Positions 37,115 to 53,995 of a stretch of DNA of 64,000 bases are shown piece after piece (within the stretch, counting starts at the first letter, position 1; the number at the start of each line of letters is the position of its first letter). The notes beneath the pieces are model-generated. The model was not told where the DNA came from and did not search any database. It worked only from the letters and a program-made list of their open reading frames with translations. Source of the DNA: Vampirovibrionales bacterium (GTDB taxonomy: Bacteria; Cyanobacteriota; Vampirovibrionia; Vampirovibrionales; Vampirovibrionaceae); NCBI GenBank assembly GCA_029866025.1, contig JARXAD010000001.1, positions 143,361 to 207,360 of the forward strand, written 5' to 3'. Made by a program: the position numbers and the translations under genes.

Positions 37115-39484
37115 TTATACTGCCGGATGAAAGCGTTCAAATTCAGCGCGCAGTTGATTCAACGACGGCCGCTCCCCTTTGGGTTTGTTTGACAACAAAT
37201 TGAGGAAGCTGGGGAAATAGTATTCAGCCAATATTTTGTAGGGGTCGTGTTCAATAGAAACGTATTTATATGCGTTCATTCTCATATTTAGTAAGGAATC
37301 TTTATCGGTTAACGCATTGGCACCCGGTTCGGTTGCTTTTTTGTAAGCCCTATCCATAAGTTGATAAAAAGATTGGTTCACTTCGTTGTATTCCGCTGTC
37401 TCTTGCTCGGTTAGGGTCGCTTCGCGATCGGGCAACGAATATTGTAAGGTTCCGGCGTTTAGCGCCAAGGTTTCTTTTTGGGTAAGGTCTAATAACTTGT
37501 TTAAAGAGCTACGATACACAGGCATGTTGCTCATTTTCATTAGCAATGCCGTTGGGCCGTATTCCCGCAAAATATAATCGGCCCTGTTCCCCACCGGTAA
37601 ATCTTTATCGGCCAATGACCACGCCAACCCATCCGTGGCAACAGCCAGCGGAATGGAAAACATTTTGAGTGCCTTTAATTGAGAAATGCCAAAGGGCTCA
37701 TACAAGCTGGGGTGAATAATAAAATCGGCTGCTGCATTCAATCGGTCATCGCCATTTTGAGTATACGGTGCCATCGGCATCCAAAAACGGCCTTTTATGG
37801 CAGGGTTACTGCTAAGTTTTTTAACCCATTCTGCTAACCCTGCAATACGACCACTTCCGGCAATGGCTAACTGGGCTTTGGGGTGCTGCAATAAAAACGC
37901 TTCCGCTTCTTTCATCAGCAAGTGAAAGCCTTTTTGGTACGGGTCTAAACGGGCTACCCACGTGTATAAAACAGCATCCGGATCTTCGTTTAAGTAGTTA
38001 TCAACAAACTTTTTTGGCCCCTTGTCTTGGTTATATGAAACCCCTGCTTTTTGCATGGCTTGAGTCCATCGCTGAAAAGCTACTTTATTGGCTTTTTTAA
38101 ACGCCAGTAATTCGGGAGCCATTTGTACGCGGATGGGAGACTCTTGCTCTTTAGGGCTGTTAACTAATTGCGTTAATAACGCCGCTTTAGAAAAAGGCTT
38201 AAATTCAATGGGGCCAACGCCCGCAACCGTTGGCTCGGTGGCATGTGTTGTTAGGTATTCTGCCCCTTCAGGGGTCATGCTTTCATCAATAAAATGGTGC
38301 ATATCGTAGGCATAATCTGCTTTAAACAGTTTTTTTAATCCTGATAAAAAAGCACCCCCGCGTGAAAAATTACTGCCGGTAATGGTGGATAGAAAATTAT
38401 GGTTGACAATGACGCTATCAGCCAAGCTTAAGCCAAGGGTAAAATATTCGGTAAAGGTTTTGGTTAACGATTGAAGCGCCGTAGGCAAAGGAAAAATACG
38501 AGACAGCCATGATGTGTATTGAGTATCGGAGTAGGTGTTGTGCAAATAAAACATAGATTTATAATTGCCCAATACTTTTTTTAGCGGCAATGCTAAAAAG
38601 GGCGCTGCTGGCCAGTCATTGGCAATGGCAATATCCACGCCGTTAGGAAAAGGAATTTGAAACGTAGATCCCTTTGGCAAGGGCTTTTGGCCCGTTAAGT
38701 AGGGCAACACTTTATAAATAGCATTGTTAAATAGAAGCAAACTATCTTTTTTAGTGCTTTGGGCCTTGGGGTGAGAATCTTCATGCTTTTTGTCAACGTC
38801 GTCAATTTTATAGGCGTAAAATACACTATCAAAACGACGCGTGTAAAAATCATTTCCCAAAGTATATTCATTGGGATTTGCCTTGGATTGCTTTAGGTTA
38901 AAAAAGGCTTTTTTGGCATATTTATCAACAAATTGCTCTTGACGCTCTTTGTTGGGAATCAGCCTAGAGACAGCGATTAAAAGGGTGTTCAGCCAATACC
39001 GATCAGGCACACCCACAGTAACGCCTGTATCCACCCAATCCGCTTTTTTGTTGTTATTACTGTCCTTTAAATATTTGCTGGTTTCAGGAGTAATGACCAC
39101 CACGTTGGCAGGGGTGTTTTTTACCATCGAGCGAACCACAAAACCGGTGACGTCACCCAGCCCACCCGTTTTATCCACAGCCCCTTCGGGAGACACCCAT
39201 AAAATTTGCAGAGGCTGGTTGGTGCGTTTGGGGTAGTGCTCGTTGATAAGTTTTTGCAGAGGCTGATAAATGGGGCTGTTCACGTTTTTAAGGGCGACGG
39301 TGGATGCAAAGCGAACGCCGGGAGAAATTTTTTGATGATGACTTAGTTGAATGGAGTCTTTTAGGGCTGAAGGCAAATTGGAGATACTGGAGCCAAAAGG
39401 CATGAGCCCAGCACCACTCACCCAAGAATGATGGGCCGATGTGACATGACGTTTCAGGGGTGGTGATGAGGTAACCCCGAGCAT
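37115..39484 (-). CDS. Divergent glycogen/starch synthase-like glycosyltransferase (GT5)
   Basis: KTGGLGDV, NDW, LHN, ARLDPYQKG and PSLYEPFGISQL; long N-terminal extension and inserts; AT-richer than its neighbours. Confidence 0.85.
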   Translation of the reverse strand: MLGVTSSPPLKRHVTSAHHSWVSGAGLMPFGSSISNLPSALKDSIQLSHHQKISPGVRFASTVALKNVNSPIYQPLQKLINEHYPKRTNQPLQILWVSPEGAVDKTGGLGDVTGFVVRSMVKNTPANVVVITPETSKYLKDSNNNKKADWVDTGVTVGVPDRYWLNTLLIAVSRLIPNKERQEQFVDKYAKKAFFNLKQSKANPNEYTLGNDFYTRRFDSVFYAYKIDDVDKKHEDSHPKAQSTKKDSLLLFNNAIYKVLPYLTGQKPLPKGSTFQIPFPNGVDIAIANDWPAAPFLALPLKKVLGNYKSMFYLHNTYSDTQYTSWLSRIFPLPTALQSLTKTFTEYFTLGLSLADSVIVNHNFLSTITGSNFSRGGAFLSGLKKLFKADYAYDMHHFIDESMTPEGAEYLTTHATEPTVAGVGPIEFKPFSKAALLTQLVNSPKEQESPIRVQMAPELLAFKKANKVAFQRWTQAMQKAGVSYNQDKGPKKFVDNYLNEDPDAVLYTWVARLDPYQKGFHLLMKEAEAFLLQHPKAQLAIAGSGRIAGLAEWVKKLSSNPAIKGRFWMPMAPYTQNGDDRLNAAADFIIHPSLYEPFGISQLKALKMFSIPLAVATDGLAWSLADKDLPVGNRADYILREYGPTALLMKMSNMPVYRSSLNKLLDLTQKETLALNAGTLQYSLPDREATLTEQETAEYNEVNQSFYQLMDRAYKKATEPGANALTDKDSLLNMRMNAYKYVSIEHDPYKILAEYYFPSFLNLLSNKPKGERPSLNQLRAEFERFHPAV

Positions 39485-41090: not shown

Positions 41091-44000
41091 TTACCGTGTT
41101 TCACGCACCAGCAATACGCCTGCATCGGGTTTGGTGGCATCCATCATTAAGGGCTTCCCATTCAAGGCAACTAACTTTCCTTTGCTCACCACAAAGGTGT
41201 TTTGGGTGCCTTCTTGGCGATACCGAGTGCCATCGGGCATCCCCAACGTCGAAATATCGGGGGTGTAGGCAAAAGGTTTGCGAGGGGTTCGGGTAATTGG
41301 GTAGGTGGCGTTTTTGCCCAATGGGTTGGCTTTGGCAGCGTCTTGGTTGAACAACTCACCGGTGGCGGGGGCAATGGGTAGCAGGCCAATGATTTGCTGA
41401 TTGCCGGACTGAGGACCACCATCCCAAACGCTCATAAACACGCCGTTGGTGTCGTCTTGGCTGACGGGCTGCCAAAATCCGTTAAAGGCTTTTTCGTGAT
41501 CTCGTCGCCACTGGCTTTGGGTGCGCAGGGTGCTTTGAGCTGTGAGAAGCCACGGGGCCGGTGCCTTGTTATAGGGCGTTACCAAGGCGTCTCGGTTTTG
41601 TTGATGACGGTTATCGGTGCTTTCGCCTCCCGCTAACGCCATAAAGTCATGGCCATACAAAGCAGCATTGCCACCGCTGAGTAGCTGGGCAAACACCATC
41701 TGGGCTTGCTTTGCCATCACAGGCTTCATCAACACTTCCCACAACGGCGCTTTATGGGCGGCGTGCTTGGCCATTTCGGGTTGATTAAAAATGGCATCCA
41801 GAACTTTGTTGGGGCTTAGGTGAGCCAGCAACGTGGGCTCAATAGCCATCAACTCGGCTTCGGTTTGTTCTAACGCGTGGTAGAAGGCCTGTTTAAAGCC
41901 AGTATTGTTGTTACCGTATGCTTCTATGGCGTTTGCCAAGGCAGCACGGGTGGCCCACACTTCGCCCAAGGGTAGGTAATGAACCAAAATACTTTCCAAT
42001 GCGTTTTGAGCTGGCAATGTGGCAAACGGTTTTAACAGTTCCGGCAAAACCTTGCCGTCGTGCTGCAAGGTCCGTACCATCTCAGGAATGGCCCTGGCAA
42101 TGGCCACACGCATGTCTCGTTGGTTCATAGCTTCTTTAGGTAGATTTTCGGCATCCCCCACAAATTTTTTCTGGGGGGCTTCCATGTAATCTCGTATTAG
42201 CGCTGATAACTCTTTCGTCAATTCCGGCGTTTGGGTATGGAGGTAGGTATTAAGGTCGTTCAGCGCTTTGCCTACATCGGCGATGCCAGCCGACTTTAAG
42301 GTGGCTCTGGCCCCTGCTAAATCGGCTTTGGTTTGCAGCGCTTCCAGTACATTGTTGGTGTCATCCAGTAGCCCTCGCATGCCATACGATGCCATAGACG
42401 CAATATTGGGGTTGCGCACCAAGGCGTGGTTGACAGTGGCATAATCATGGCTGGCCAGTAGCGACAATGCCATGCGGCTAACCCATGCTGGAAACATCTG
42501 TAAAAAGCCTGCCAGTTTATCGTTGGCAAACTGTTGCGGCCCCAACATCCAGTCGCCATGTTCCCACGGTTTGGCAGGGGCGTTTACCAAGGCGGGAATG
42601 CCGCTAAACCAGTGACTCATGTTGGGCATGCTGGTAAAAACCGATTGCCCCCACTGCTTGAGAGGCTCAAAAAACAGTTGATAGGCTTGATGCACAGCAT
42701 TTTTGCTGGCGCCCAACTTTTCAGGGTCTAGCTCGGCCATAATCACGGTTTTGGGGAACACAGCCCGAACCCCAGAGAGCAGCTTGGCCCACGTATCGCG
42801 TACTGTTCGCATTTCTTTCACAAAAATGGCGTCTCGTACGTTGCCCTGGCTCGCATTGCGTATAGCAGCGGTGTTGGCGATGTCTACGGCTGCATCCAAG
42901 CGCCAATTGAGACCCACTTCGCCTTGGGTCATGAGGTGTCGAGCGACGGTGGCTGCTTCCACAGTGGTGTGGGCCAGTGTTTTTTCTGCCAAACGGGCCA
43001 GTTCTGTTGTGTTTAGGCTGCCAACTTGCCGCTGCATAGCCTTACGAAAGGTGGATGCTGCCGTGGCAGGATCCCAGCGCATGGCGGCACCCAATTGGCG
43101 ATCCATGCCTGCCCCGAGGGCGTTGATGTCGTCTGATGTTTGCCCACTGAGCAATTGACGCCACACAACGGGGGCCAACTGAATCAACACTGCATCCCGC
43201 AACGAAGGCTCTAATAGCTTTAGTTGACTTTCTGGACTGAGTTGGCGGAAGACCCCTTCTAGCGCTCGTCCCAGTTGGCTATTGAGACTTTGTTGACCCA
43301 GAGTAATGTCTAGCTTTTTGGCTAAGGGTTGGGTAGCTTTGGATTGGTTGAGTAGCCAGCGAAGCGGCTTGCTGGCCCAATACACCGGTTGTAATGACCC
43401 ATGGTGGCCTAAAATTTGGTCTTCAAACTTAGGCCAACCCAAGGTGTGCTTAATAAAGGTGAGATCGTGGGCGGGATCATCGCTGTGAAGATTGAGCGCC
43501 ACCGGCGGCAGTAATTGAGAGAGGCGCTGCCCCAGCGCGAGTGATGATTCCCAACGTTGCTGCCGTGGGGTAATGGTTTGGGGTAATGAGAGGTTGGCTA
43601 AGCGACCGGCCAACTGTTGAGTGGCCTTTAACTTTTCCAAAGTGGTTGCCCAGTTACCTTCATAGTGCTGGGTTAGTAGTTCGGTTAAAGGCTGAAAGAG
43701 CCACTCTGAATCCGTTCGCTGGGTCCAATAGGTCAGGGCTTGTTGGGCTTGGCCTTGTACCGCGGGATTGGCTAAGTTCAATCGTTTGGCGGGAATTTTC
43801 CCATCCCAGCCTTCACCGGAGTCGTCTTCGTCAGGGCGTCCCAAACGGAAACCCGGCCAATCCACCATGGCTTGCTTGTATTCCACCGAGTCCGGCGATT
43901 TTCCCTGGAGGATCTGAAGTTTTTTGGAAACATCTTTAGCATTGGCAATGGGGAAGGTGTAGTTGTACACCGAGCCGCTGGCAGATAACCATGGGGTGGT

Positions 44001-45059
44001 GTCCTTCCCTGCCTCTCGAATGGGATCAAACAGCTGAATGGCCGTTGGACGGTTGGGGTTGTAGGCTGGCTGTCCAGCAGGGGGATTAGGGCTGTTAATG
44101 AGGCGAACGCCCACACGGTCCCAGTTTACATCCAGGCCGTTGGGCTTAATAGGCAACACGCCTAGTACCAGCTTGCGATCCGTAAATACACTTGGGAACC
44201 ACTTGTTTAGCAAGGCGCCTTGGGTGTTGCGATCAAACTGGTACCAATTCCAGTAGGGCGAGCGGGCTCCATGGAGCAGCAAGCTTTGGTACTGGGGGCT
44301 CATCATGCCGTGGTTGACAAACGCCCCATCAAAATAAAGCTTTATCCCATCTTGCAGGCTGTACTGCATCAGGCGTTTTAGGTCTTTATCTTGCCATACT
44401 GAGGCAAAAGGATCCGCCGTCCAGTAGTGGTGGGGCGACACCCAGTCCCCTGTGAGTGGCGACATCATAACCCCGCCCAGGGCTGGGGTTCGCTTGCCAG
44501 TTTTGGGGTCTATTAAAAATTGATCGATGCGCTGAAAAGCCCCTTCAGCCCCTCCACCGTGGGTAACATACGAATGGGTAAGACTAGTGGATAAGGGTTT
44601 GGTTGGGTTGCCTTTGGCATCCAGGGTAACAGCCGCATCTGGGTAAAGGTACAGCAAGGTGCCAACCGATTGGGTGGGGGCAAGGTTGGGGCGTGCCACA
44701 TTCCACTGTTGGCCATTCACCACGCGGGTCTCGGTGGCATCTAGGCGCTGTTGGCCATCCACCACAAAGCGGTACAGCACTTCTTGGGGTGTTGATGACG
44801 CTTTGGGTCTGAGGGTGACCGTATCGGATAGTGGCTGAGACGCCTCCCAGTAAAGACCTTTATTAATTAACGTTTGGTTTGTTAATGCTTGCTGAGCGTC
44901 GTTTTTAAACTCAACCGCTACGGAACCGGCTTGGGTATGGCCTTCTAAGTATGGGGTGGGGGCCAATTGCCCTGAATTCCAGTAATAACCACCAAAACGG
45001 ACACCCAATGGTGTGGATGCAAAGCCTTGAGAGGTCGTTGTTGGGTGATAAGCCATCAT
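41091..45059 (-). CDS. Very large GH13-like alpha-glucan enzyme with N-terminal CBM48-like segment
   Basis: YRFVVDG; conserved regions DGAFVNHG, WRLDAA, IMAEL and ASHD. Likely start is ATG 45059/45056 (the ORF track starts at 45173). Confidence 0.78.
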   Translation of the reverse strand: MMAYHPTTTSQGFASTPLGVRFGGYYWNSGQLAPTPYLEGHTQAGSVAVEFKNDAQQALTNQTLINKGLYWEASQPLSDTVTLRPKASSTPQEVLYRFVVDGQQRLDATETRVVNGQQWNVARPNLAPTQSVGTLLYLYPDAAVTLDAKGNPTKPLSTSLTHSYVTHGGGAEGAFQRIDQFLIDPKTGKRTPALGGVMMSPLTGDWVSPHHYWTADPFASVWQDKDLKRLMQYSLQDGIKLYFDGAFVNHGMMSPQYQSLLLHGARSPYWNWYQFDRNTQGALLNKWFPSVFTDRKLVLGVLPIKPNGLDVNWDRVGVRLINSPNPPAGQPAYNPNRPTAIQLFDPIREAGKDTTPWLSASGSVYNYTFPIANAKDVSKKLQILQGKSPDSVEYKQAMVDWPGFRLGRPDEDDSGEGWDGKIPAKRLNLANPAVQGQAQQALTYWTQRTDSEWLFQPLTELLTQHYEGNWATTLEKLKATQQLAGRLANLSLPQTITPRQQRWESSLALGQRLSQLLPPVALNLHSDDPAHDLTFIKHTLGWPKFEDQILGHHGSLQPVYWASKPLRWLLNQSKATQPLAKKLDITLGQQSLNSQLGRALEGVFRQLSPESQLKLLEPSLRDAVLIQLAPVVWRQLLSGQTSDDINALGAGMDRQLGAAMRWDPATAASTFRKAMQRQVGSLNTTELARLAEKTLAHTTVEAATVARHLMTQGEVGLNWRLDAAVDIANTAAIRNASQGNVRDAIFVKEMRTVRDTWAKLLSGVRAVFPKTVIMAELDPEKLGASKNAVHQAYQLFFEPLKQWGQSVFTSMPNMSHWFSGIPALVNAPAKPWEHGDWMLGPQQFANDKLAGFLQMFPAWVSRMALSLLASHDYATVNHALVRNPNIASMASYGMRGLLDDTNNVLEALQTKADLAGARATLKSAGIADVGKALNDLNTYLHTQTPELTKELSALIRDYMEAPQKKFVGDAENLPKEAMNQRDMRVAIARAIPEMVRTLQHDGKVLPELLKPFATLPAQNALESILVHYLPLGEVWATRAALANAIEAYGNNNTGFKQAFYHALEQTEAELMAIEPTLLAHLSPNKVLDAIFNQPEMAKHAAHKAPLWEVLMKPVMAKQAQMVFAQLLSGGNAALYGHDFMALAGGESTDNRHQQNRDALVTPYNKAPAPWLLTAQSTLRTQSQWRRDHEKAFNGFWQPVSQDDTNGVFMSVWDGGPQSGNQQIIGLLPIAPATGELFNQDAAKANPLGKNATYPITRTPRKPFAYTPDISTLGMPDGTRYRQEGTQNTFVVSKGKLVALNGKPLMMDATKPDAGVLLVRETR

Positions 45060-45324
45060 AAGGAACTGTGCTGGAGACGAATAAGCCCGTGGTAAAAACC
45101 AATGCAATGAGAAAAGAGAAAAGAAAAGTGGATAAGCCGTAGGAATTAAAAAAAGGATGGATTCTGGATGCATGCTGTACCGCTAAGGAGATTAAAATCA
45201 AGCGGGCGGAGCAACATTTAAGCTTTGTAACGAAGAGGGCTGAACAGGCAATTTTTACCTTGGAGGATCCTCTTAGTAATAGCAACAACGAGGGTCAAGA
45301 ATCCAAATTGCTTGATTCTAAAAA

Positions 45325-45346
45325 TTTGTTGCTGGTTTGCAACAAA
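45325..45346. promoter_or_regulatory. Palindromic operator candidate in the divergent GH13 promoter region
   Basis: TTTGTTGC-N6-GCAACAAA, a perfect 8-bp inverted repeat. Confidence 0.45.
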
Positions 45347-45454
45347 AGTCACACTCCCTCCAACAGCTCCTTTTAAATACCCCCTAGCCAAACGGCTATG
45401 TTTCGCCATCATGAGTCATAGGCTTATCGACTCAACTTATCCACACGCTTCATA

Positions 45455-46642
45455 ATGACCCCTGTAACAGCCATACCGGCTTACTTTTCGGCAGCAGCTC
45501 CTTCGGTGCCCCCTTGGCTTCGGCAACCGGCTTCTGCCAGCGTGGCAACGTCTTTACCACCTATTCCACAAGCTCCCAACCCTTTGTACTTTTATGATGT
45601 CAGTCTGAAGCCGGAACGTTTGATTACTCTCAATCCGCTTCAAAAAGTCAAACTTGGGTTTCATCAAACCTTTGTGGAGCTTCCTAAATCACTGGCCAAA
45701 GGCTTTTGGGGCGACAGTCGCTACCGATTTGATGATTTCTTGCGGTTGGGGCAAATCCCCTATGTGCTGGGTGGGGCAACCTTGGCCGGTATTTTTGCCT
45801 TAGGGGGGCACAAACTAACCATTGCACGCCAATTGGCTGCTATTGGGTTGTATTATGCAGGCCAACTAGCCGGTAGTTTGGGTGTGAATACGGCGGTGAA
45901 GTTATACACGGGTATTGACTCCGATTTGCGATACACCGCTGCCGATGGCCAAATTAAGCGCGTGTTTACGGATCCCACCTTCTCGCGGTACGACTTATTG
46001 CCCCCCGAATTTTACGTAGCCAAGGCCGCCCAATTGGGCATCCCCCCCACGGTGGCGGATCCAGAAGGGGAGGTGAAAAATACCATTGCCAATATGCTCC
46101 CCAAAATTCGTTTGTCTAAGGCCCTCATGGGAAATGCCCTGGCGGCGGTAGGTGCGGGCTTGATTGCTCGAAGCGATGTGTGGCTGAAGCTAAGCCAGCG
46201 AACGCCCGGTTTGTCGGCCCCACAGCAATTGGCTCAGTGGGCTAGGGATGTGTTGGGGATTTTGGGTCATCAGTGGTTTGCTCCCCTCAGCCATCACCCC
46301 AGTGGACTGCCAGCAGGGCGAATTATAGCCTTGCGCAGTGTTGCTTCGGTGGCTTTGGTAGGGGCTTTTGGTTATGGAGCCTGGCTTTTGGCTACTCTTA
46401 AGCCTAAAAAAACCTTCCAGCCTGCCCATGTGGAATACTTACGCAACATTAATGACCTGTTTGGCCCAACTAGCCAGCAAAACCAGCCCGACTACCTCAT
46501 GCGAAATGCAGCCATTCAGGCATTCCAATCCTATTTAATGCGAACCCGAGAACAAATGACGCCAGGCTTGTATGATGGTGTTGTATTGGCTCCCATGGCT
46601 TCCGTAACTCCTAACGTCAAGGCCAAGGAGGCAACTCCATGA
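45455..46642 (+). CDS. Hypothetical membrane protein, paralogous to the N-terminal half of 46639-49887
   Basis: Hydrophobic helices; shared ungapped block VKxxTG…Y…FxD…LxP…LxxP; ATGA overlap with the next gene. Confidence 0.8.
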   Translation: MTPVTAIPAYFSAAAPSVPPWLRQPASASVATSLPPIPQAPNPLYFYDVSLKPERLITLNPLQKVKLGFHQTFVELPKSLAKGFWGDSRYRFDDFLRLGQIPYVLGGATLAGIFALGGHKLTIARQLAAIGLYYAGQLAGSLGVNTAVKLYTGIDSDLRYTAADGQIKRVFTDPTFSRYDLLPPEFYVAKAAQLGIPPTVADPEGEVKNTIANMLPKIRLSKALMGNALAAVGAGLIARSDVWLKLSQRTPGLSAPQQLAQWARDVLGILGHQWFAPLSHHPSGLPAGRIIALRSVASVALVGAFGYGAWLLATLKPKKTFQPAHVEYLRNINDLFGPTSQQNQPDYLMRNAAIQAFQSYLMRTREQMTPGLYDGVVLAPMASVTPNVKAKEATP

Positions 46643-49600
46643 GCCTGATGACACCGTTACCGCCTGCTAGTGTAGGATCCGCACCCAAAGCCTCTCATAC
46701 GCCAGTCCCCCTGGATGCGCAACGGGTGCCGTCTCCTGGCGTGTTTCATCGTTCTCTCAAGCCATCTGAACGGGAACAGCCTGTCCTAAATAGCTTGCTG
46801 TATGCCATGAAGACCCCCGATGCCACCGTGAATGCTCACCAGTTGGGCCGTGTGGAAGGTGGCTTAAAAATGGCGGGCGGTGCCATTATTGCCTTGCTAT
46901 CGTTATTGGGGCTGCCCAATGCCAGCTTAGGTGTGGCCGAAGTGCTTGGGTTTGGCGGCTTTTTTGGCACCATGGCCGTTATGCCCAAAGCAGTGCAGTG
47001 GTTGGTAAAGCAAAAAACGGGTCTTAACCAAAACGCCTATTACCTCAGTACCCAACGCGATCGTCGTTGGCTGTTCCAAGATGTGGGCTATTTACCCTTT
47101 CATCTCATTCCTGAGGCTGAGATTCAAAAAGTAGGCGACCGTTTAGAGGTGCCCCAAAATCTGCCCAACCGTCGGGGTGTTATTGAAGATCGCATTCGTC
47201 AAATTACGGCACAATCGCAAACCCTGTGGATGCTATTGGCAGGCCCTGCCACGCCTTTAGTGGCTTCGGGCTTGGCCCATGTGCTAGAGCAACCCGGTTT
47301 GGCTGCGGTTAACCAACTTAAGCGTTGGACGTACCAAGGATTGTTGTCTGCAGGGATTGGTAATAAAAAGGCTCTGTTGCAAGGCCTCTTGAATACCTTT
47401 GTCGGCGATTCGCCCTCCTCAGATCTCTCTCGCTGGTGGCCCAAGGTTCAACAGCGCTTGGCCAATGAGAGTGGGTTGACTCACTTTGTTGCTCAACGCA
47501 GTAAAGAAGTAGGAATTAAAGCCAGTAAGCTGACGGATGTTCAGTGGGCACAATGGTTGGAAGACTTTTTAGCTACAGAGATGGAGACAGGTCATCCTCA
47601 ACAGGCGGCAGCGGCTTCTCAACGCTGGGATCGCTTGATTGCCAGCTTAAAAACCTTCCAAGAGCAGGTGCAAGATATTTGGGGCGGTAAGGCCCAAGGG
47701 CTTTTGGCTAAATATACGGGGGGCCATGAAGCCCCAAGCCAGCTTAGTGAGCTAAGCGCCCCCGGTAAAGTATTGTCTTCGGCAGAGCACGCTAAAAAAC
47801 AATGGTTGGAAACCTTGTTGCAACTTCGAAAGGAGTTGGCAGATGGCAGCATTCCTCGCCTGGACAATGCCAACGGGTTACTCAATCAAGTGGACCGCTT
47901 GGAAGAGTGCTTGCTGGATAGTACTCAAGGGGCCAATAAAGACTTGCGGCGCCACCAGCCTTTAACCCGAGAAGCCTTACGAGATTTGTTGTACGGCAAC
48001 AACGCCGGTCGTATGGCAGAAGCGCTCGTGTCTGGGGATAGTGATACGGTGCAGCGTGTGTTGGTGGGTGATTTTGAACGTCAAATTGGCGGTAAGAATG
48101 GATTCTTTAAATGGTTGGGGCATTTGGGCCGCCGAGAATTTCAAAAGGCCGAATGGACCTTAGGCCCGACATTGGCTTCTCAGTTTAAAGTCGGTGCCAA
48201 ACAAGCCCTTACTGTGGGTGGTTGGCGGCGTGGGGTGTTGGGCGTGTTGGGGGGTGGCTTGGCTGTTGCCAGTGCACTGTATTACGCCTTGGTATTGGGT
48301 AAAACCCGAAAACCACCAGCCAGTGAGTTTTCCAATGCGGAGCAGATGATCCGTAAATACAATCAACGGGGTGAGTTTGAAACCTTGCAGCGCAGCATTG
48401 CGGTGCTTAAAGCCCAGCGAGCTTCGTTGGCCCCACGCAACCCCTTGTTTGAGCAGCCGGGCTATTTAAAATCCTTGTTCCATCAGCGCCAGGCTGTTAC
48501 GTACGCACTCAACATTCGAACCTATGGCGCCCAAGATACCAACCGAGACGGTCTCATTACGCCGTATCAATTTGAGCAAGGTACTTTTTTAAGCAGCATT
48601 GCTCGCCTAGACGAGCTAAAAGCCTTGGGTGTGAATAATATTCATTTGCTGCCCATTAATCCCATTGGTACGTTAAAACGCAAAGGGGTGGCCGGTAGTA
48701 TTTATGCGGTAGCCGATTTGCACACTTTAAATCCGCAGCTGGCGGATCCGCGTAGCCCTCTCAATGTGTATGAACAGGCGCGCTTATTTGTTCAAGAATG
48801 TCACAAGCGTGGCATTCAAGTCATGATCGATATTCCCAGTATTGCCAGTATTGATTTGGCCATTACTCGTCCTGACCTGATTGCGGTGGATGAAGCAGGG
48901 CGAACCCAAACCCCCACCACTTGGACCGATGGGGTTGTATTTAAAAACGATGCCAAATTGCTGGAGTACTACCAAGGCTTTTTTGACTTAATGGTGAATG
49001 ATTTGGGCGTGGATGGCTTTAGGGCAGACGTGGCTCGCTTCCGTCCCGATTGGTTCTGGAAGCATTTCATCAACAAATACCCGGATAAAGCCTGGGTGGC
49101 CGAAACCTACACGCCGGAAGACGCCTCGCCCTTGGATCGGATTCCGCGGGATAATCCCCATGATCAGTTGGGGTATGGCTTTGATGCCATCTACGGACAG
49201 CTGCATATCTTCCATCAACTGAAGAGTGGCCGTGACTTTACCAACTACTTAACGGGGGAACTGCCTAGTATTACCCATGCTGGGGCGGCTCAAGCAGGGG
49301 TCTCGCCCTTAACAAAATCATCGTGGGCGTCGTACCTTACCCATGACGATGAAACCACACCCATGAACCATGGGGGTGTGGAACATGCTTTAATGGTGGC
49401 CAATCTGACGGCCCTAACCCCTAACACCACGCCGTATATTTTGGATGGTCAGCAAACGGGTTACGACAAACGTATTGATATTTTTAACTACACGCCAGCT
49501 CATGTGGGTGAGCATCCTGAAATAGGCACGGCCCTTGCCAAAGCTTTGGCTGTGCGTAAGGCCTATGCTGATGTCTTTGCCAATGTCTCTGTGCCCAATG

Positions 49601-49887
49601 TATTGCCGATTACCGGCGATGTTACCCACCAGTTGTTTGCGTGGACATTGGAGCACAATGGCCGCAAGCTGTTACTGATTGGCAACAAAACCCCCAACGC
49701 TCGTACCGAAGGGATGATTCAATTGCCACCGGGCTTGTTGCCACCGGGCAAGCCTCTCTCCAACCTGTTGTTGGAATACGGTCGTCAGTGTCGCTTAGCA
49801 CCCACTCCACAAGGCCTGTCTGTTAGCTTAGGGCCGTCTCGCATTCTGTTGTTTGATGTGTCGTTGTCGACAGCGAAGGCTGTTTAA
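46639..49887 (+). CDS. Fusion of an unknown membrane domain and a C-terminal GH13 alpha-amylase domain
   Basis: C-terminal half has LDELKALGVNNIHLLPINP, GSIYAVAD, DGFRADVA (D797), AETY (E822) and THDD (D903). Confidence 0.88.
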   Translation: MSLMTPLPPASVGSAPKASHTPVPLDAQRVPSPGVFHRSLKPSEREQPVLNSLLYAMKTPDATVNAHQLGRVEGGLKMAGGAIIALLSLLGLPNASLGVAEVLGFGGFFGTMAVMPKAVQWLVKQKTGLNQNAYYLSTQRDRRWLFQDVGYLPFHLIPEAEIQKVGDRLEVPQNLPNRRGVIEDRIRQITAQSQTLWMLLAGPATPLVASGLAHVLEQPGLAAVNQLKRWTYQGLLSAGIGNKKALLQGLLNTFVGDSPSSDLSRWWPKVQQRLANESGLTHFVAQRSKEVGIKASKLTDVQWAQWLEDFLATEMETGHPQQAAAASQRWDRLIASLKTFQEQVQDIWGGKAQGLLAKYTGGHEAPSQLSELSAPGKVLSSAEHAKKQWLETLLQLRKELADGSIPRLDNANGLLNQVDRLEECLLDSTQGANKDLRRHQPLTREALRDLLYGNNAGRMAEALVSGDSDTVQRVLVGDFERQIGGKNGFFKWLGHLGRREFQKAEWTLGPTLASQFKVGAKQALTVGGWRRGVLGVLGGGLAVASALYYALVLGKTRKPPASEFSNAEQMIRKYNQRGEFETLQRSIAVLKAQRASLAPRNPLFEQPGYLKSLFHQRQAVTYALNIRTYGAQDTNRDGLITPYQFEQGTFLSSIARLDELKALGVNNIHLLPINPIGTLKRKGVAGSIYAVADLHTLNPQLADPRSPLNVYEQARLFVQECHKRGIQVMIDIPSIASIDLAITRPDLIAVDEAGRTQTPTTWTDGVVFKNDAKLLEYYQGFFDLMVNDLGVDGFRADVARFRPDWFWKHFINKYPDKAWVAETYTPEDASPLDRIPRDNPHDQLGYGFDAIYGQLHIFHQLKSGRDFTNYLTGELPSITHAGAAQAGVSPLTKSSWASYLTHDDETTPMNHGGVEHALMVANLTALTPNTTPYILDGQQTGYDKRIDIFNYTPAHVGEHPEIGTALAKALAVRKAYADVFANVSVPNVLPITGDVTHQLFAWTLEHNGRKLLLIGNKTPNARTEGMIQLPPGLLPPGKPLSNLLLEYGRQCRLAPTPQGLSVSLGPSRILLFDVSLSTAKAV

Positions 49888-50312: not shown

Positions 50313-53300
50313 ATGTCGAATATTTCCAATGTGTCGTCGAATGCATCGGCTTTTAGTGCCAAAAGCATTCGTAAAGAGTTAACCAAAGAACAAAACGAAG
50401 CCCTGAGAGAAATGTCGAAAAATACCGTGCATGGCGATGCCGATTTGGCTGCTCAGTTGGCTGTTTTGAGTGTTTTGGAATTTAACACCCTGGCCGGCAC
50501 CAGCAGTGCCGATACAGAAACCATTACGATTAACAACGATACCAGCGTTTCGATGAAAGAGAAAAAAGGCACCCTGGACAAAATAAAAGAAGTTTTTGAA
50601 AAATTTAAAAGCAACGTGCAACTGGCTAAAGACGAAATTAAGCTGGTTAAAACCTTTATTAAAGACTTGCAATCGCCCGCCGACCGAAGCGATGAGCCCC
50701 CTGCCTTAATGGGCTTTACCCAAGAGGAATACGCTGCCGTTAAAGGTTCCAAGCGTATTCAAATGGAGAGCGGCGAAACCGACGAAAAACGCAAGTACGC
50801 CGTTATGACGGGTGTGGAAACGGGCTTTTTAGAAAGCCTTCGCAAAGATTTAAAATCGGGCCTGTTTAACATTAAAAACCCCAAAATTGGCGATTTTCAA
50901 GCCAAGGTCAAAGAATACGAAGGCAAGGCCAACAAATCCACCGAAGATTATGAAAAACTGTTGGGCTACCGCTACATTGTGGACAATTGGACGGAGATGA
51001 ACAAGTCCGGCGGCAAGGCTAACCTGAGCAAGGCTAACCTGAAGAACTTGGACAAACAGGGCGGTAAAGACGGCTTTGTGACCTTGGGCGATATTGACGC
51101 CTCGAAAGGGCAAAAGCAGGGTTACCACTCGCGTAAGGTAACGGGTATTGTTACCGCTGCCGTGGTGGGTACTGCAATAACCGTGTTAACGGGGGGTGCC
51201 TTGGGCCCTGTGGCGGCCGGTGCCATTGGTGCCGCTGCTGGTTCAGTAGCTTCTAGCGCTATTCAAAAAAAGACCTTTAAAGAAGCGGCCAAAGAGGCGG
51301 CCTTGGCTGCCGCCTTAGGGGCGGTGGGCGGTGTTGCGGCACAAGGTGCTGGAGCGGCGGCTAGTGGGTTAACCAGCAAAATGTCAAGCGAAGTGGCCAA
51401 AGCGGCCATTAAGCAAGGGGCGTCTGCTGCGGCACGCAGTGCCAGCACCACTGTTATTAACGACGTTGCCGATGACGGCAAACTAAACAACCGTAAAGGC
51501 TACTTAAAGCAAATAGGCATTGGCGCCGTAACGGGTGCTGCTGCCAGCGGCCTAGGCGCTGGCCTGGGCGATTTTGGAGCCACGGTTGTGGGTAAATCCA
51601 TTGAGCGAGGTGCCCAGCAAGGCATGGATTATGCCGCCAAGGACCTAACCGATGGCAAGAAAGGCTTTGATGAAAAAGCCCTACTGGGCGCTTTTGCCGG
51701 AGGCGTGGTGAGTGGTGCTGTAGAGCAAGGGGCCCAAGCCGTGGGTAACCATGTAGGACCTGAAACCCGCTTTGGCAATAGCCCTGTGGGCGAGACGGTA
51801 AAGGCAGGGTTGGGCGGATTGGCGGCCGGTGCTGCTGGCGAATTGACCAACCAGGTTATTTCTCGCAAAAAAGGCCAACGCGACACGGAGAGCATTTTAA
51901 ACAGTGCGCTGGGTAGCATGCAATCCAACGCGGTGGCGGCCCATCAAGAGTCTCGTGCCGAGCGTAAAGCGAAGCAAGAACGTGAAGCCCAATTGGCAGC
52001 ATTACTGAGTGCTAAACCCGGTGGTGAGGCCTCTGCAGATGAAGCACCTTGGAGAACTCTCTTAGACGGTGAAATGACCGAAACCTCTGCCGAGGCTGGC
52101 CCTGACGATCCAATTGTTCCCAAAAGCAAACTTATCAAATTGGATGACAATGGAGAACCCTACCTAGACAGCAATGCTGGAACTGCGACTAAAGCAGACT
52201 GGGAAGAATTACGTGCCTTAGGTAAGGAGTATAAAGCACGCAAGCAAGCCGCCAAGGCAAAGGCTGCTGCCGCAAACCCTGCTACAACCAAGGCTGCCTC
52301 TAGCGCTCCCGTTGCTACAACCACTAATGTCTCTAACGCCGTCGTTAACACTCCCAATGTTCCAGCTAAGCCTGTAGCCTCCACTACCCCTGCTGCGAAA
52401 CCAGCAGCGGTCGAGTCAAAAGATTACTGGGACATGAGTAAACGGCAACGGCGCCAATTGGATAGAGCTGATCGCAAGGCGAAAAAATATGCCTACGAGG
52501 AGGCAATGTTTTGGGACCCAAATCAAACTGAGATAGCTCCCCCTGAAAAAACTGGCATTCTAACCCGCGTTTCGGATAAGGTTGTTAATACCTATAACCG
52601 TGCGACCAAAGGCGACGTTACTTATGGTAATGATGGAACGGCATATTACGACCGCAGCACTACCTGGGTAAAGCAAGCCAAACGTGGTATTGGCAACGCC
52701 GCCCACGCCGTGGGTAACGGCATCGAAAAAGCCTACGACCGCGTTGTTAACGGTAAAGTGGTTACAGATGCCAATGGCAATGTCGTAAAGGATGGCTGGG
52801 GTGACCCTGTTCGCAAGCGCCCTATTATCGACCGCATTACCAAAGGCACAGTGGTTACAGATGCCCAAGGCAACATCCAGACGGATGACAACGACAACCC
52901 TGTTTACACTCGCCCAATGGTAGACGGTTTCAAAAAAGTCTACAGCCGCGTTGTTAACGGTAAAGTGGTTACAGATGCCAATGGCAATGTCGTAAAGGAT
53001 GGCTGGGGTGACCCTGTTCGCAAGCGCCCTATTATCGACCGCATTAGCAAAGGCAAGTACGATCCAGAGTATGAATCCTACAGTCGCCCAATGGTAGACG
53101 GTTTCAAAAAAGTCTACAGCCGCGTTGTTAACGGTAAAGACGTTAGTGGTGAATCTGAAATTACCACCTACGAGCGTCCTCTCCTTGACAAAGCTCACAA
53201 CGTAGGTCAGTACATTCTCCACCCTTTTAAGGCGGAAAAACGTGACCTGCGGAACCCATACGTTACTCAAACCCTTAGCAAATCTCCCCAAACAAAAACA

Positions 53301-53687
53301 GGCAATTTTGTTGCCGATGGATCAACCAATGGCAAAGCCGTTTTAAACGGTAGTAAGAAATCGGGTAATGCTGTTGTATCGGGTGCCACTAGTGGCCAAA
53401 TCGGTATCAATACCGGTCGTGCTGCAGCAAATGCTTTCACTGCTCAGTATACAATCTATGATAACCTACCCTTTGAAGAAGCATTTGAGGCCGCCCGAAA
53501 AAAACGGATTAGCGATATGCACACCACCACAACGTACAACGGAGTCGATGCGTTTCCTTGGCACGTGGGTGAAAACCCAAAAAACCCCAGTGGGTGGTAC
53601 AATCTTCGTCGCAAAGATGAGGACGACCTTACGTATCAATCTCTTTTCCTGAACTATGAGCCTTTAGAAACAAACAAAGCAAAGTAG
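50313..53687 (+). CDS. Large hypothetical protein: Ser/Asn-rich N-terminus, EF-hand-like module, Gly/Ala-zipper hydrophobic region and internal repeats
   Basis: 1124-aa ORF with strong RBS (GAGGAAGAG); TGIVTAAVVGTAITVLTGGALGPVAAGAIGAAAG; repeated RVVNGKVVTDANGNVVKDGWGDPVRKRPIIDRI. Confidence 0.85.
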   Translation: MSNISNVSSNASAFSAKSIRKELTKEQNEALREMSKNTVHGDADLAAQLAVLSVLEFNTLAGTSSADTETITINNDTSVSMKEKKGTLDKIKEVFEKFKSNVQLAKDEIKLVKTFIKDLQSPADRSDEPPALMGFTQEEYAAVKGSKRIQMESGETDEKRKYAVMTGVETGFLESLRKDLKSGLFNIKNPKIGDFQAKVKEYEGKANKSTEDYEKLLGYRYIVDNWTEMNKSGGKANLSKANLKNLDKQGGKDGFVTLGDIDASKGQKQGYHSRKVTGIVTAAVVGTAITVLTGGALGPVAAGAIGAAAGSVASSAIQKKTFKEAAKEAALAAALGAVGGVAAQGAGAAASGLTSKMSSEVAKAAIKQGASAAARSASTTVINDVADDGKLNNRKGYLKQIGIGAVTGAAASGLGAGLGDFGATVVGKSIERGAQQGMDYAAKDLTDGKKGFDEKALLGAFAGGVVSGAVEQGAQAVGNHVGPETRFGNSPVGETVKAGLGGLAAGAAGELTNQVISRKKGQRDTESILNSALGSMQSNAVAAHQESRAERKAKQEREAQLAALLSAKPGGEASADEAPWRTLLDGEMTETSAEAGPDDPIVPKSKLIKLDDNGEPYLDSNAGTATKADWEELRALGKEYKARKQAAKAKAAAANPATTKAASSAPVATTTNVSNAVVNTPNVPAKPVASTTPAAKPAAVESKDYWDMSKRQRRQLDRADRKAKKYAYEEAMFWDPNQTEIAPPEKTGILTRVSDKVVNTYNRATKGDVTYGNDGTAYYDRSTTWVKQAKRGIGNAAHAVGNGIEKAYDRVVNGKVVTDANGNVVKDGWGDPVRKRPIIDRITKGTVVTDAQGNIQTDDNDNPVYTRPMVDGFKKVYSRVVNGKVVTDANGNVVKDGWGDPVRKRPIIDRISKGKYDPEYESYSRPMVDGFKKVYSRVVNGKDVSGESEITTYERPLLDKAHNVGQYILHPFKAEKRDLRNPYVTQTLSKSPQTKTGNFVADGSTNGKAVLNGSKKSGNAVVSGATSGQIGINTGRAAANAFTAQYTIYDNLPFEEAFEAARKKRISDMHTTTTYNGVDAFPWHVGENPKNPSGWYNLRRKDEDDLTYQSLFLNYEPLETNKAK
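52739..53139 (+). repeat. Intragenic in-frame direct repeats
   Basis: 101-bp exact repeat at 52739-52839 and 52946-53046 (offset 207); 56-bp exact repeat at 52910-52965 and 53084-53139 (offset 174). Confidence 0.92.
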
Positions 53688-53922: not shown

Positions 53923-53995
53923 TACCCCGTAGGGGAGTCGAACCCCTGTCGCCTCCGTGAAAGGGAGGTGTCCTAGGCCACTAGACGAACGGGGC
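53923..53995 (-). tRNA. trnE: tRNA-Glu(TTC), CCA not encoded
   Basis: GCCCCGTTCGTCTAGTGGCCTAGGACACCTCCCTTTCACGGAGGCGACAGGGGTTCGACTCCCCTACGGGGTA folds as a cloverleaf with anticodon TTC. Confidence 0.97.

Follow-up and report, generated by a model that had tools for sequence, protein, structure and literature searches.

Paralogous membrane proteins encoded with a divergent GH13 enzyme in Melainabacteria: a candidate membrane platform for alpha-glucan processing

Envelope-tethered glycoside hydrolases are a known theme. MalS, the lipoprotein pullulanases and SusG face outward and rely on Sec signal peptides or lipoprotein anchors. The heavy chains rBAT and 4F2hc of the SLC3 family, components of the eukaryotic heteromeric amino-acid transporters, carry an extracellular domain resembling glycoside hydrolase family 13 (GH13); that of 4F2hc is non-catalytic, and a disulfide links this heavy chain to a 12-helix permease of the APC type. 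SemiSWEET and the PQ-loop sugar transporters use a three-helix unit twice, in a two-fold pseudo-symmetric assembly. Here we analyze two adjoining genes, A and B-C, in a stretch of 64,000 nucleotides (the window) from the genome of Vampirovibrionales bacterium (assembly GCA_029866025.1, contig JARXAD010000001.1, positions 143,361 to 207,360 of the forward strand), a member of the Melainabacteria (class Vampirovibrionia). Gene A encodes a stand-alone protein, and gene B-C encodes a paralogous protein (B) fused to a GH13 catalytic module (C). We give an even chance to the proposal that A and B form a heteromeric inner-membrane platform, which would hold, on its cytoplasmic side, a GH13_48-like enzyme whose catalytic residues are intact.

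The module resembles each of the above systems in part. As in the SLC3 proteins, a GH13-type domain directly follows one membrane helix and a heteromeric membrane complex is proposed; unlike in SLC3, the enzyme has a complete catalytic triad and probably resides in the cytoplasm, and its partners are two small paralogues without an APC or any other transporter or permease signature in Pfam. Among 20 loci of the module, fetched from 17 genomes of the class, an amino-acid permease gene stands beside it in only two (L027 and L037). By analogy to SemiSWEET, a three-helix unit occurs twice and is tied to sugar handling. However, the A/B unit possesses a conserved loop of about 70 residues, a fourth helix and long tails, none of 24 A-type and 22 B-type members matches SemiSWEET in Pfam, and SemiSWEET is not among the fold matches listed. 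With MalS, the lipoprotein pullulanases and SusG the module would share an alpha-glucan-active GH13 enzyme positioned at the cell envelope, but here there is no signal peptide, and the tether would be a paralogous membrane pair or a fusion.

The paralogy of A and B, which the initial annotation had proposed from an ungapped alignment, is strongly supported. Both open reading frames and their ATGA overlap were confirmed (Table 1), and residues 147-212 of A align without gaps to residues 122-187 of B with 13 identities in 66 positions and a BLOSUM62 score of 48. None of 20,000 shuffles of this block attained the observed score (mean -67, standard deviation 17, z 6.8), and at other offsets the block of A scored at best -3 in B and 9 in reversed B. 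In a gapped BLASTP comparison of this one pair, the alignment covers 160 columns at 25% identity and scores 30.4 bits (E 2e-4). This E-value is only modest and the alignment is partly hydrophobic, as might be expected if the likeness were a compositional artefact of hydrophobic Gly-rich helices in two unrelated neighbouring genes. We regard that explanation as refuted, and its probability as negligible. The profile-profile comparison on which the annotation had staked its claim aligns 24 A-type sequences (alignment A1) with 22 B-type sequences (alignment A2) over 185 columns (hhalign probability 98.7%, E 2.1e-16), and phmmer searches across the two families in related loci connect A with B-type proteins at E-values down to 6e-12 and B with A-type proteins down to 1e-10. 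Moreover, in the joint alignment of both families (A3; 42 sequences, 162 profile positions) conservation is strongest in the columns of a hydrophilic loop and not in the hydrophobic helices, and it is the score of this loop that no shuffle could match. The consensus of A3, VKxxTGVDLxxxYxxxxGxxxxVFxDPxFxRxDLL...KLGIPxxxxD, reproduces the shared motif described before.

The shared unit is, however, about twice as long as first proposed, namely about 165 residues instead of ~80, as it includes the two hydrophobic helices that precede the aligned block and one that follows it. It is thus composed of two hydrophobic helices, the loop of about 70 residues with a small beta hairpin, and a long helix containing the third hydrophobic segment. 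In A, an amphipathic helix leads into hydrophobic helices 1 and 2 (IPYVLGG, residues 101-107), followed by the conserved loop with its hairpin (FSRYDLL, 176-182) and by helix 3, which ends with ARSDVW (238-243). According to A1, the A-type proteins conserve PY in helix 1, Tyr133, Gly153, Arg178-x-Asp180-Leu181 and Trp243; the B-type proteins conserve instead Gln192, Thr195, Gly202 and Pro206 (A2). Since different residues are conserved in the two types, the A and B subunits are not equivalent.

Downstream of the shared unit, each protein possesses a spacer and a last hydrophobic helix with the basic patch noticed in the initial annotation. The spacer comprises about 50 residues in A and about 300 residues of long helices in B, where it expands to about 650 residues in Gastranaerophilales. 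Correspondingly long are the B proteins, with ~500 residues in most split forms (those in which B and C are separate genes) and ~840-860 in Gastranaerophilales, and the split forms of B end 10-25 residues past the last helix (A2). Three to four hydrophobic segments are found per protein. Helices 1-3 of both A and B are rich in Gly and Ala and weakly hydrophobic (Kyte-Doolittle values of 1.2-1.9), and the last helix reaches 2.0-2.3 in several members. The AlphaFold2 (AF2) model of A (predicted local distance difference test, pLDDT, 75.3; predicted template modelling score, pTM, 0.64) is all-helical apart from one small beta hairpin, and that of B 1-580 (pLDDT 75.4, pTM 0.64) contains helices of 40-61 residues; in both proteins long unbroken helices pass through the hydrophobic segments. 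The low-complexity N-terminal tails are modelled with low confidence: pLDDT is below 50 in residues 1-45 of A and in residues 1-25 and 35-42 of B. The C-terminal tail of A is variable except for a motif [FY]xx[FY]xxxR (AFQSYLMR at 46520..46543 in the window), which is common to the A-type proteins outside Gastranaerophilales (A1 columns ~540-560) and may be a docking peptide.

Judged by sequence and model searches, the shared domain is an undescribed family of membrane proteins and not one already described in Pfam, which would have counted against the initial annotation: neither Pfam nor NCBIfam holds a family common to the A-type or the B-type members. In Pfam, the 24 A-type proteins matched nine families with one member each, none of them shared (best E 0.0061), and the 22 B-type proteins, matches to the GH13 clan aside, gave only scattered hits (HetE-N in two members, others in one each). 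The 42 domain sequences matched four NCBIfam families, again with one member each (best E 0.026), and a profile search of the PDB returned nothing better than E 0.86. In the structure searches, which used whole models of A and of B 1-580, so that a lack of matches is no proof of a new fold, Foldseek found nothing in the PDB at E <=0.001 (best 0.077 for A and 0.27 for B, TM-scores <=0.17), and VIA-align found only generic helices for A (best Z 5.9, 67 residues aligned, root mean square deviation 3.6) and generic bundles for B (best Z 9.7, 154 aligned, deviation 6.7), both below the tool's background for helical proteins. The nearest named cluster in the ESM Atlas, PF10558 MTP18 (33% of members, score 0.76), fell below the threshold for a lead and was dropped; the other clusters near the domain come from Melainabacteria and Cyanobacteriota. 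In the open-access literature, judged by titles and the openings of abstracts, no description of an A-B-GH13 module was found.

The functional tie of A and B to the GH13 enzyme, suggested initially by a single fused gene, is borne out by comparison of genomes. In all 20 loci the three genes keep the order A, B, GH13 on a single strand, and their junctions overlap or abut (in two of the loci C is cut off by the end of the fetched stretch). The fusion seen in the window is real but a minority arrangement: B and GH13 are fused in 5 loci and encoded by separate genes in 15. Three genomes (G029, G069 and G149) contain one fused and one split module each, and further long reading frames with GH13 occur in G142, G082 and G170. 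In the window, a Shine-Dalgarno sequence AAGGAGG is situated 8 nucleotides ahead of the ATG of B-C, within the end of A, and together with the ATGA overlap it forms a signature of translational coupling. We searched 201 genomes of the class with protein A and, separately, with the GH13 module. A is present in 80 genomes, with 18/24 in family f1, 6/19 in f2, 5/5 in f3, 2/2 in f4 and 48/49 in f7, and it is absent from five other families of the class (0 of 47, 30, 9, 12 and 2+1 genomes). The GH13 module was found in the same 80 genomes, each time at E <=1e-65; beyond these, it was detected only as a paralogue in one f7 genome and as two weak matches in f5. Gastranaerophilales also possess a second, unlinked stand-alone paralogue of the module's GH13 (frames of ~515-525 residues, E 1e-52 to 1e-64 to the window's domain), with neither A nor B alongside in the match table (e.g. 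G107:C6:73157-74158 and G070:C1:657493-658491).

On a wider scale, profile A3 was run against 401 genomes of the phylum. All 168 positive genomes lie within the class (165/169 in the gut family f7, 2/2 in f12, and the window's genome), each of them with exactly two copies of the domain, while about 224 genomes from other classes of the phylum gave no match. Among the genomes sampled, the A/B family is therefore restricted to Melainabacteria. A profile search of 1.84 billion cluster representatives yielded 497 matches at E <=0.001, 475 at 1e-10 and 348 at 1e-30, and in all 150 proteins among the matches listed the domain is near the N-terminus. The 156 scoring proteins in hand comprise 33 of A-type (317-459 residues) and 123 of B-type (261-1286 residues). 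Only 4 of 157 proteins in hand carry GH13 according to the C-module profile, the other long proteins being extended B forms; a scan of 46 long representatives for fusion partners returned PF00128 once and a weak DUF445 once. No A-B fusion, internal duplication or protein with two significant copies of the domain was found among the proteins in hand. In public records, searched with a narrower alignment (A4), as protein A alone as query gave no relative, the f7-type carriers are titled Candidatus Gastranaerophilales or Melainabacteria, and the complete chromosome of MEL.A1 is one of them. The nearest named relatives of A and B are encoded by adjoining genes, U0003_03895 and U0003_03890, of a metagenome-assembled genome of Vampirovibrionales bacterium, and an orthologue of B-C (P0007, 1089 residues, 45% identity over the N-terminal 580 residues) has a locus tag next to that of the A orthologue. 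The homologues of gene A are 84-42% identical to it.

A B-type domain 65-71% identical to the Gastranaerophilales copies also occurs in six records (L049, L074, L088, L092, L098 and L113) labelled Clostridium sp. CAG:967/CAG:768, Brachyspira sp. CAG:484, uncultured Muribaculaceae and Heliobacteriaceae bacterium. These labels are probably misassignments, since the domain is confined to Melainabacteria in the sampled genomes.

The C-terminal module can be assigned to GH13, the alpha-amylase family, by similarity of its barrel. A phmmer comparison of the C-terminal 500 residues with the PDB returned 4gkl (E 3.9e-20), 3dhu (E 1e-15) and the maltosyltransferase 1gju (E 6.1e-11), whereas the Pfam match to PF00128 remained below the cut-off (17.8 versus 22 bits); the assignment is drawn from the PDB sequence matches. 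Among the 22 B-family sequences PF00128 was matched by 6 at E <=0.1 (best 1.5e-7), and the fused members also matched GHL6 (4), Malt_amylase_C (3) and hDGE_amylase (2). In 23 members of the window's GH13 clade, the nucleophile Asp of conserved sequence region (CSR) II, the acid/base Glu of CSR-III and the third Asp of CSR-IV are present without exception, the last of these within an HDD motif in 20 members. CSR-I of GH13 canonically contributes a substrate-binding histidine. Here it does not end with Asn-His: the window has DIPSIAS, where SI stands opposite NH in the alignment with 4gkl, and a PSxA-type sequence replaces NH in 23/23 members.

4GKL (Thermotoga neapolitana) and 3DHU (Lactiplantibacillus plantarum) are maltogenic amylases and structural representatives of subfamily GH13_48, according to PMC11239784. 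The window module shares with these enzymes GFRxDVA around the nucleophile and ETx around the acid/base; the clade was compared with them in further features which that source lists. The Cys before the nucleophile, 81% conserved in GH13_48 with mainly Ala, Val and Leu in the remainder (PMC11239784), is Ala in the window and Cys in only 1 of the 23 members (otherwise Val, Ala, Leu or Ser). The GQ that ends CSR-VII is found in the window (ILDGQ) and altogether in 4/23 members, the others having GF, GY, GM or GL. For CSR-V, which ends with L-[DN] in GH13_48, the stretch presumed to correspond reads WTDGVVFKND in the window; in most of the family it terminates in F-x-N-[ND], with some uncertainty of register. 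We regard the window's GH13 as a probably active enzyme of a distinct clade, nearest to GH13_48 but not a canonical member of it. The domain survey in PMC11239784 includes starch-binding and other modules but no membrane domain, and neither "transmembrane" nor "Melainabacteria" is used in its main text.

On which side of the membrane the enzyme resides can be approached through the split forms. None of the 13 stand-alone C proteins has a signal-like or membrane segment at the N-terminus before the catalytic domain, and 11 of them have no hydrophobic segment at threshold anywhere. Of the other two, one has such a segment within its catalytic domain, and the protein from L036 has a weak segment at residues 61-79. 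Their N-termini are 70-100 residues of low complexity, rich in P, Q and Y. Since the free C proteins are signal-less, and since fused and split modules coexist in single genomes, we infer a cytoplasmic location for the C-terminus of B and, with it, for the GH13 domain. With a cytoplasmic C-terminus, four helices and long N-terminal tails (50-130 residues) without a signal, A and B would both be N-in and C-in, which would place the conserved loop on the cytoplasmic side and the B-specific helical region on the outer one.

To assess the contact between the two subunits, the complex of A 45-375 with B 40-580 was predicted in three runs, each protein with its own alignment, next to three controls. 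The runs scored 0.40, 0.39 and 0.40, against 0.00 for the best of the controls, a result graded as "weak support"; at least 77% of the contacts are common to the runs, and the partners have pLDDT of at least 65. In the calibration, 58 of 80 solved complexes attained the mark for this grade, as did 2 of 110 mismatched pairs; the calibration is only rough for custom alignments. A hetero-oligomer is made more likely beforehand by the translational coupling and by the strict occurrence of the domain in two copies per positive genome, and we consider it, from the model and these features together, somewhat more probable than not that A and B form one. The initial annotation offered three roles for such an oligomer: anchor, channel or granule-surface scaffold. 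The lack of a signal peptide and of a membrane helix in the 13 stand-alone GH13 proteins favours anchoring at the cytoplasmic face; nothing specific for a granule surface was found.

The mechanism we propose for the platform is as follows. A, B and GH13 would be the products of a single operon with coupled translation. Both A and B would be integral membrane proteins, each with a disordered cytoplasmic N-terminal tail, the three-helix unit, a spacer and a final helix, and in the inner membrane they would combine into a pseudo-symmetric heteromer. As a platform, this heteromer would hold the GH13_48-like alpha-glucan enzyme at the cytoplasmic face, covalently where B and C are fused and non-covalently where they are split, and its purpose might be to localise the processing of alpha-1,4-glucan or maltodextrin at the membrane, next to sugar uptake. 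The latter suggestion comes from the position of the operon in the window beside an opposite-strand set of alpha-glucan genes, located upstream within 13 kb of A-B-C (Pfam/NCBIfam): an alpha-glucan phosphorylase (TIGR02094, E 9.4e-139), MalQ (TIGR00217, E 7.3e-139) and a sugar transporter of the major facilitator superfamily (MFS). The set also includes the GlgA-like protein and gene D (Table 1).

Several observations weigh against this proposal. Lys and Arg give a net positive charge in every loop of both families, and the 15 residues before the last helix of B carry a net charge of +3.3, compared to +1.4 for the 15 residues after it, which by the positive-inside rule would put GH13 outside. 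Helices 1-3 are weakly hydrophobic and Gly/Ala-rich, and some of them may not span the bilayer. Among the pairs that reached the mark in the complex predictions, scores of at most 0.60 include only 7 of the 80 solved complexes but both mismatched pairs. The flanking genes are not conserved beyond close relatives, so that the link to sugar uptake derives from the window's neighbourhood, and the role of the module has to be deduced mainly from that neighbourhood and from the enzyme family. Finally, the replacement of the CSR-I histidine in all 23 members implies that the substrate or the reaction may differ from those of the maltogenic amylases.

The charge count contests the cytoplasmic placement, and because of it we keep a rival arrangement in which A and B are an outward anchor, hold GH13 in the periplasm, aid its export in the split forms and trim maltodextrins before uptake. 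Analogues exist in the periplasmic amylase MalS of E. coli and in the holin-assisted secretion of signal-less glycosidases. The MFS sugar transporter adjoining the cluster would fit an outward-facing enzyme, as would the fermentation of starch and glycogen predicted for gut Gastranaerophilales in PMC3787301. However, none of the 13 stand-alone GH13 proteins has a signal peptide or N-terminal hydrophobic segment, the four helices and signal-less tails predict the N-in/C-in topology, and neither A nor B matches a secretion-system or holin family in Pfam or NCBIfam. We therefore consider the outward anchor unlikely.

The regularity with which the domain occurs, exactly two copies in two separate proteins in 168/168 positive genomes, is also what would be expected of a translocon in which the three-helix units of A and B line a sugar-conducting path and the tethered GH13 feeds or receives alpha-glucan chains. 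Aromatic and polar residues are conserved within the hydrophobic helices (PYYLGG and LYYLG in A, QxxTWWML in B), the presence of the maltosyltransferase 1gju among the three PDB matches would suit such a machine, and the altered CSR-I suggests a non-standard reaction. In this version GH13 would act as a transferase or a processive hydrolase coupled to a pseudo-symmetric two-subunit path, either for the export of periplasmic or capsular alpha-glucan or for the import of maltodextrin. We judge the coupled path, in either direction, to be quite improbable: A and B match no transporter or channel family (Pfam, NCBIfam) or fold (Foldseek at E <=0.001; only generic helices by VIA-align), a glucan channel would be expected to have more than eight helices of such weak hydrophobicity, and no gene of glucan synthesis is conserved beside the module outside the window's family.

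The marginal hydrophobicity of helices 1-3, the net basic charge of all loops, as if they were on one side, and the length of the B helices could alternatively mean that A and B are not bilayer proteins at all but peripheral or monolayer scaffolds, e.g. on the surface of glycogen granules or of some other inclusion, that recruit GH13. At least a GlgA-like match at E <=1e-20 is present in all of the A-positive genomes (n=80) except one that is 56% complete. On the other hand, f9 (GlgA-like in 11/12 genomes) and six f1 genomes have GlgA or a GlgA-like protein but no module. The module is thus found only in lineages with GlgA or GlgA-like proteins, yet several such lineages do without it, and a role in glycogen metabolism is neither proven nor excluded. 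Furthermore, many members have a strongly hydrophobic last helix (Kyte-Doolittle values up to 2.3 over 19 residues), and no phasin-like or granule-protein family was matched in Pfam. We regard the granule scaffold as very unlikely, and retain the membrane platform as the preferred reading.

The coordinates of the module and of the neighbouring features are collected in Table 1.

Table 1. Features of the A-B-C locus in the window, with the evidence for each
Feature	Position	Strand	Description and evidence
Gene A	45455..46642	+	395 aa; open reading frame; stand-alone member of the apparently new membrane-protein family
Shared domain in A	45665..46186	+	residues 71-244; A1/A3 alignments, hhalign
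C-terminal hydrophobic helix of A	46322..46411	+	residues ~290-314 followed by LKPKK 315-319; hydropathy, A1 consensus KKxY after the helix
A/B junction	46624..46642	+	Shine-Dalgarno AAGGAGG 46624-46630 within the end of A; ATGA stop/start overlap 46639-46642
Gene B-C	46639..49887	+	1082 aa; open reading frame; B-type membrane protein fused to GH13 catalytic domain
Shared domain in B	46801..47286	+	residues 55-216; paralogous to A 71-244; hhalign, A3
B-specific long-helix region	47287..48216	+	residues 217-526; alignment A2, AF2
Last hydrophobic helix of B	48235..48312	+	residues 533-554 ending with basic GKTRK; hydropathy 1.78, A2
GH13 catalytic module	48436..49884	+	~residues 600-1082; PDB sequence matches, motif conservation
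Catalytic candidate Asp797	49027-49029	+	motif conservation
Catalytic candidate Glu822	49102-49104	+	motif conservation
Catalytic candidate Asp903	49345-49347	+	motif conservation
Intergenic region D/A	45174..45454	.	between divergent genes D and A; presumed divergent promoter region
Gene D	41091..45173	-	listed 1360 aa; weakly GH13-like; recurrent neighbour of the module in the window's family
GlgA-like protein	37115..39484	-	789 aa; C-terminal third a partial GlgA match, 92 bits versus cut-off of 328

The flanks of the 20 loci vary, and it is only in relatives of the window that glycosyltransferase and D-type genes are found beside the module. A homologue of gene D adjoins A-B-C in 6/20 loci (L021, L022, L024, L026, L028 and L035), all from the window's order and 5/6 from its own family. 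The similarity of D to GH13 is faint (Pfam E 0.032; best PDB match neopullulanase 2z1k, E 0.004), and translation of D probably begins not with the listed ATG but with the Met-Met near residue 39, since alignments to its homologues begin at about residue 42. Between D and A, five sigma-70-like sites compare to a shuffle mean of 5.7, i.e. no excess, and the scans of the sequence for sigma-70 promoters and terminators likewise gave results at shuffle level. The best GlgA match in the window's genome has only E 3.5e-21, so this genome appears to lack a canonical GlgA; the GlgA-like protein at 37115..39484 has a long N-terminal region without assignment ahead of its GlgA part. In 4/4 Gastranaerophilales loci (L032, L033, L034 and L040) the undecaprenyl-diphosphatase gene BacA (PF02673) is found within ~2 kb upstream of A, in 3/4 directly upstream on the same strand; as these genomes are close kin, the proximity may be only inherited synteny.

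Downstream of the operon, an open reading frame of 1124 residues (50313..53687, plus strand) has no match in Pfam or NCBIfam. It includes a long hydrophobic stretch rich in Gly and Ala, as well as internal repeats of about 45 residues that are nearly identical to one another (VVNGKVVTDANGNVVKDGWGDPVRKRPIIDRI...). A frame of 243 residues antisense to it (52560..53291) is probably a mere mirror of the repeats. Further along lies a single tRNA gene (53923..53995, minus strand; Rfam RF00005, 58.9 bits), which sits between the 1124-residue frame and the ATP synthase operon (subunit a first, 54802).

Against the background of known envelope-tethered glycoside hydrolases, the A-B tether is a new variant, in which a new, lineage-restricted family of membrane proteins appears as the dedicated partner of a divergent GH13 enzyme. 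The natural fused and split forms are ready constructs for biochemistry and structure work, and the paired domain could be used as a lineage marker for Melainabacteria. These non-photosynthetic relatives of cyanobacteria include common gut species, and their carbohydrate physiology is known only from annotation because they are uncultured or barely cultured. If our proposal is true, the membrane tether would be a concrete trait of the handling of starch, glycogen or maltodextrin by gut bacteria. Should the far less probable translocon turn out to be true, the module would be a previously unknown enzyme-coupled machine for alpha-glucan or maltodextrin, found only in Melainabacteria and near-universal in the Gastranaerophilales of the human and animal gut.

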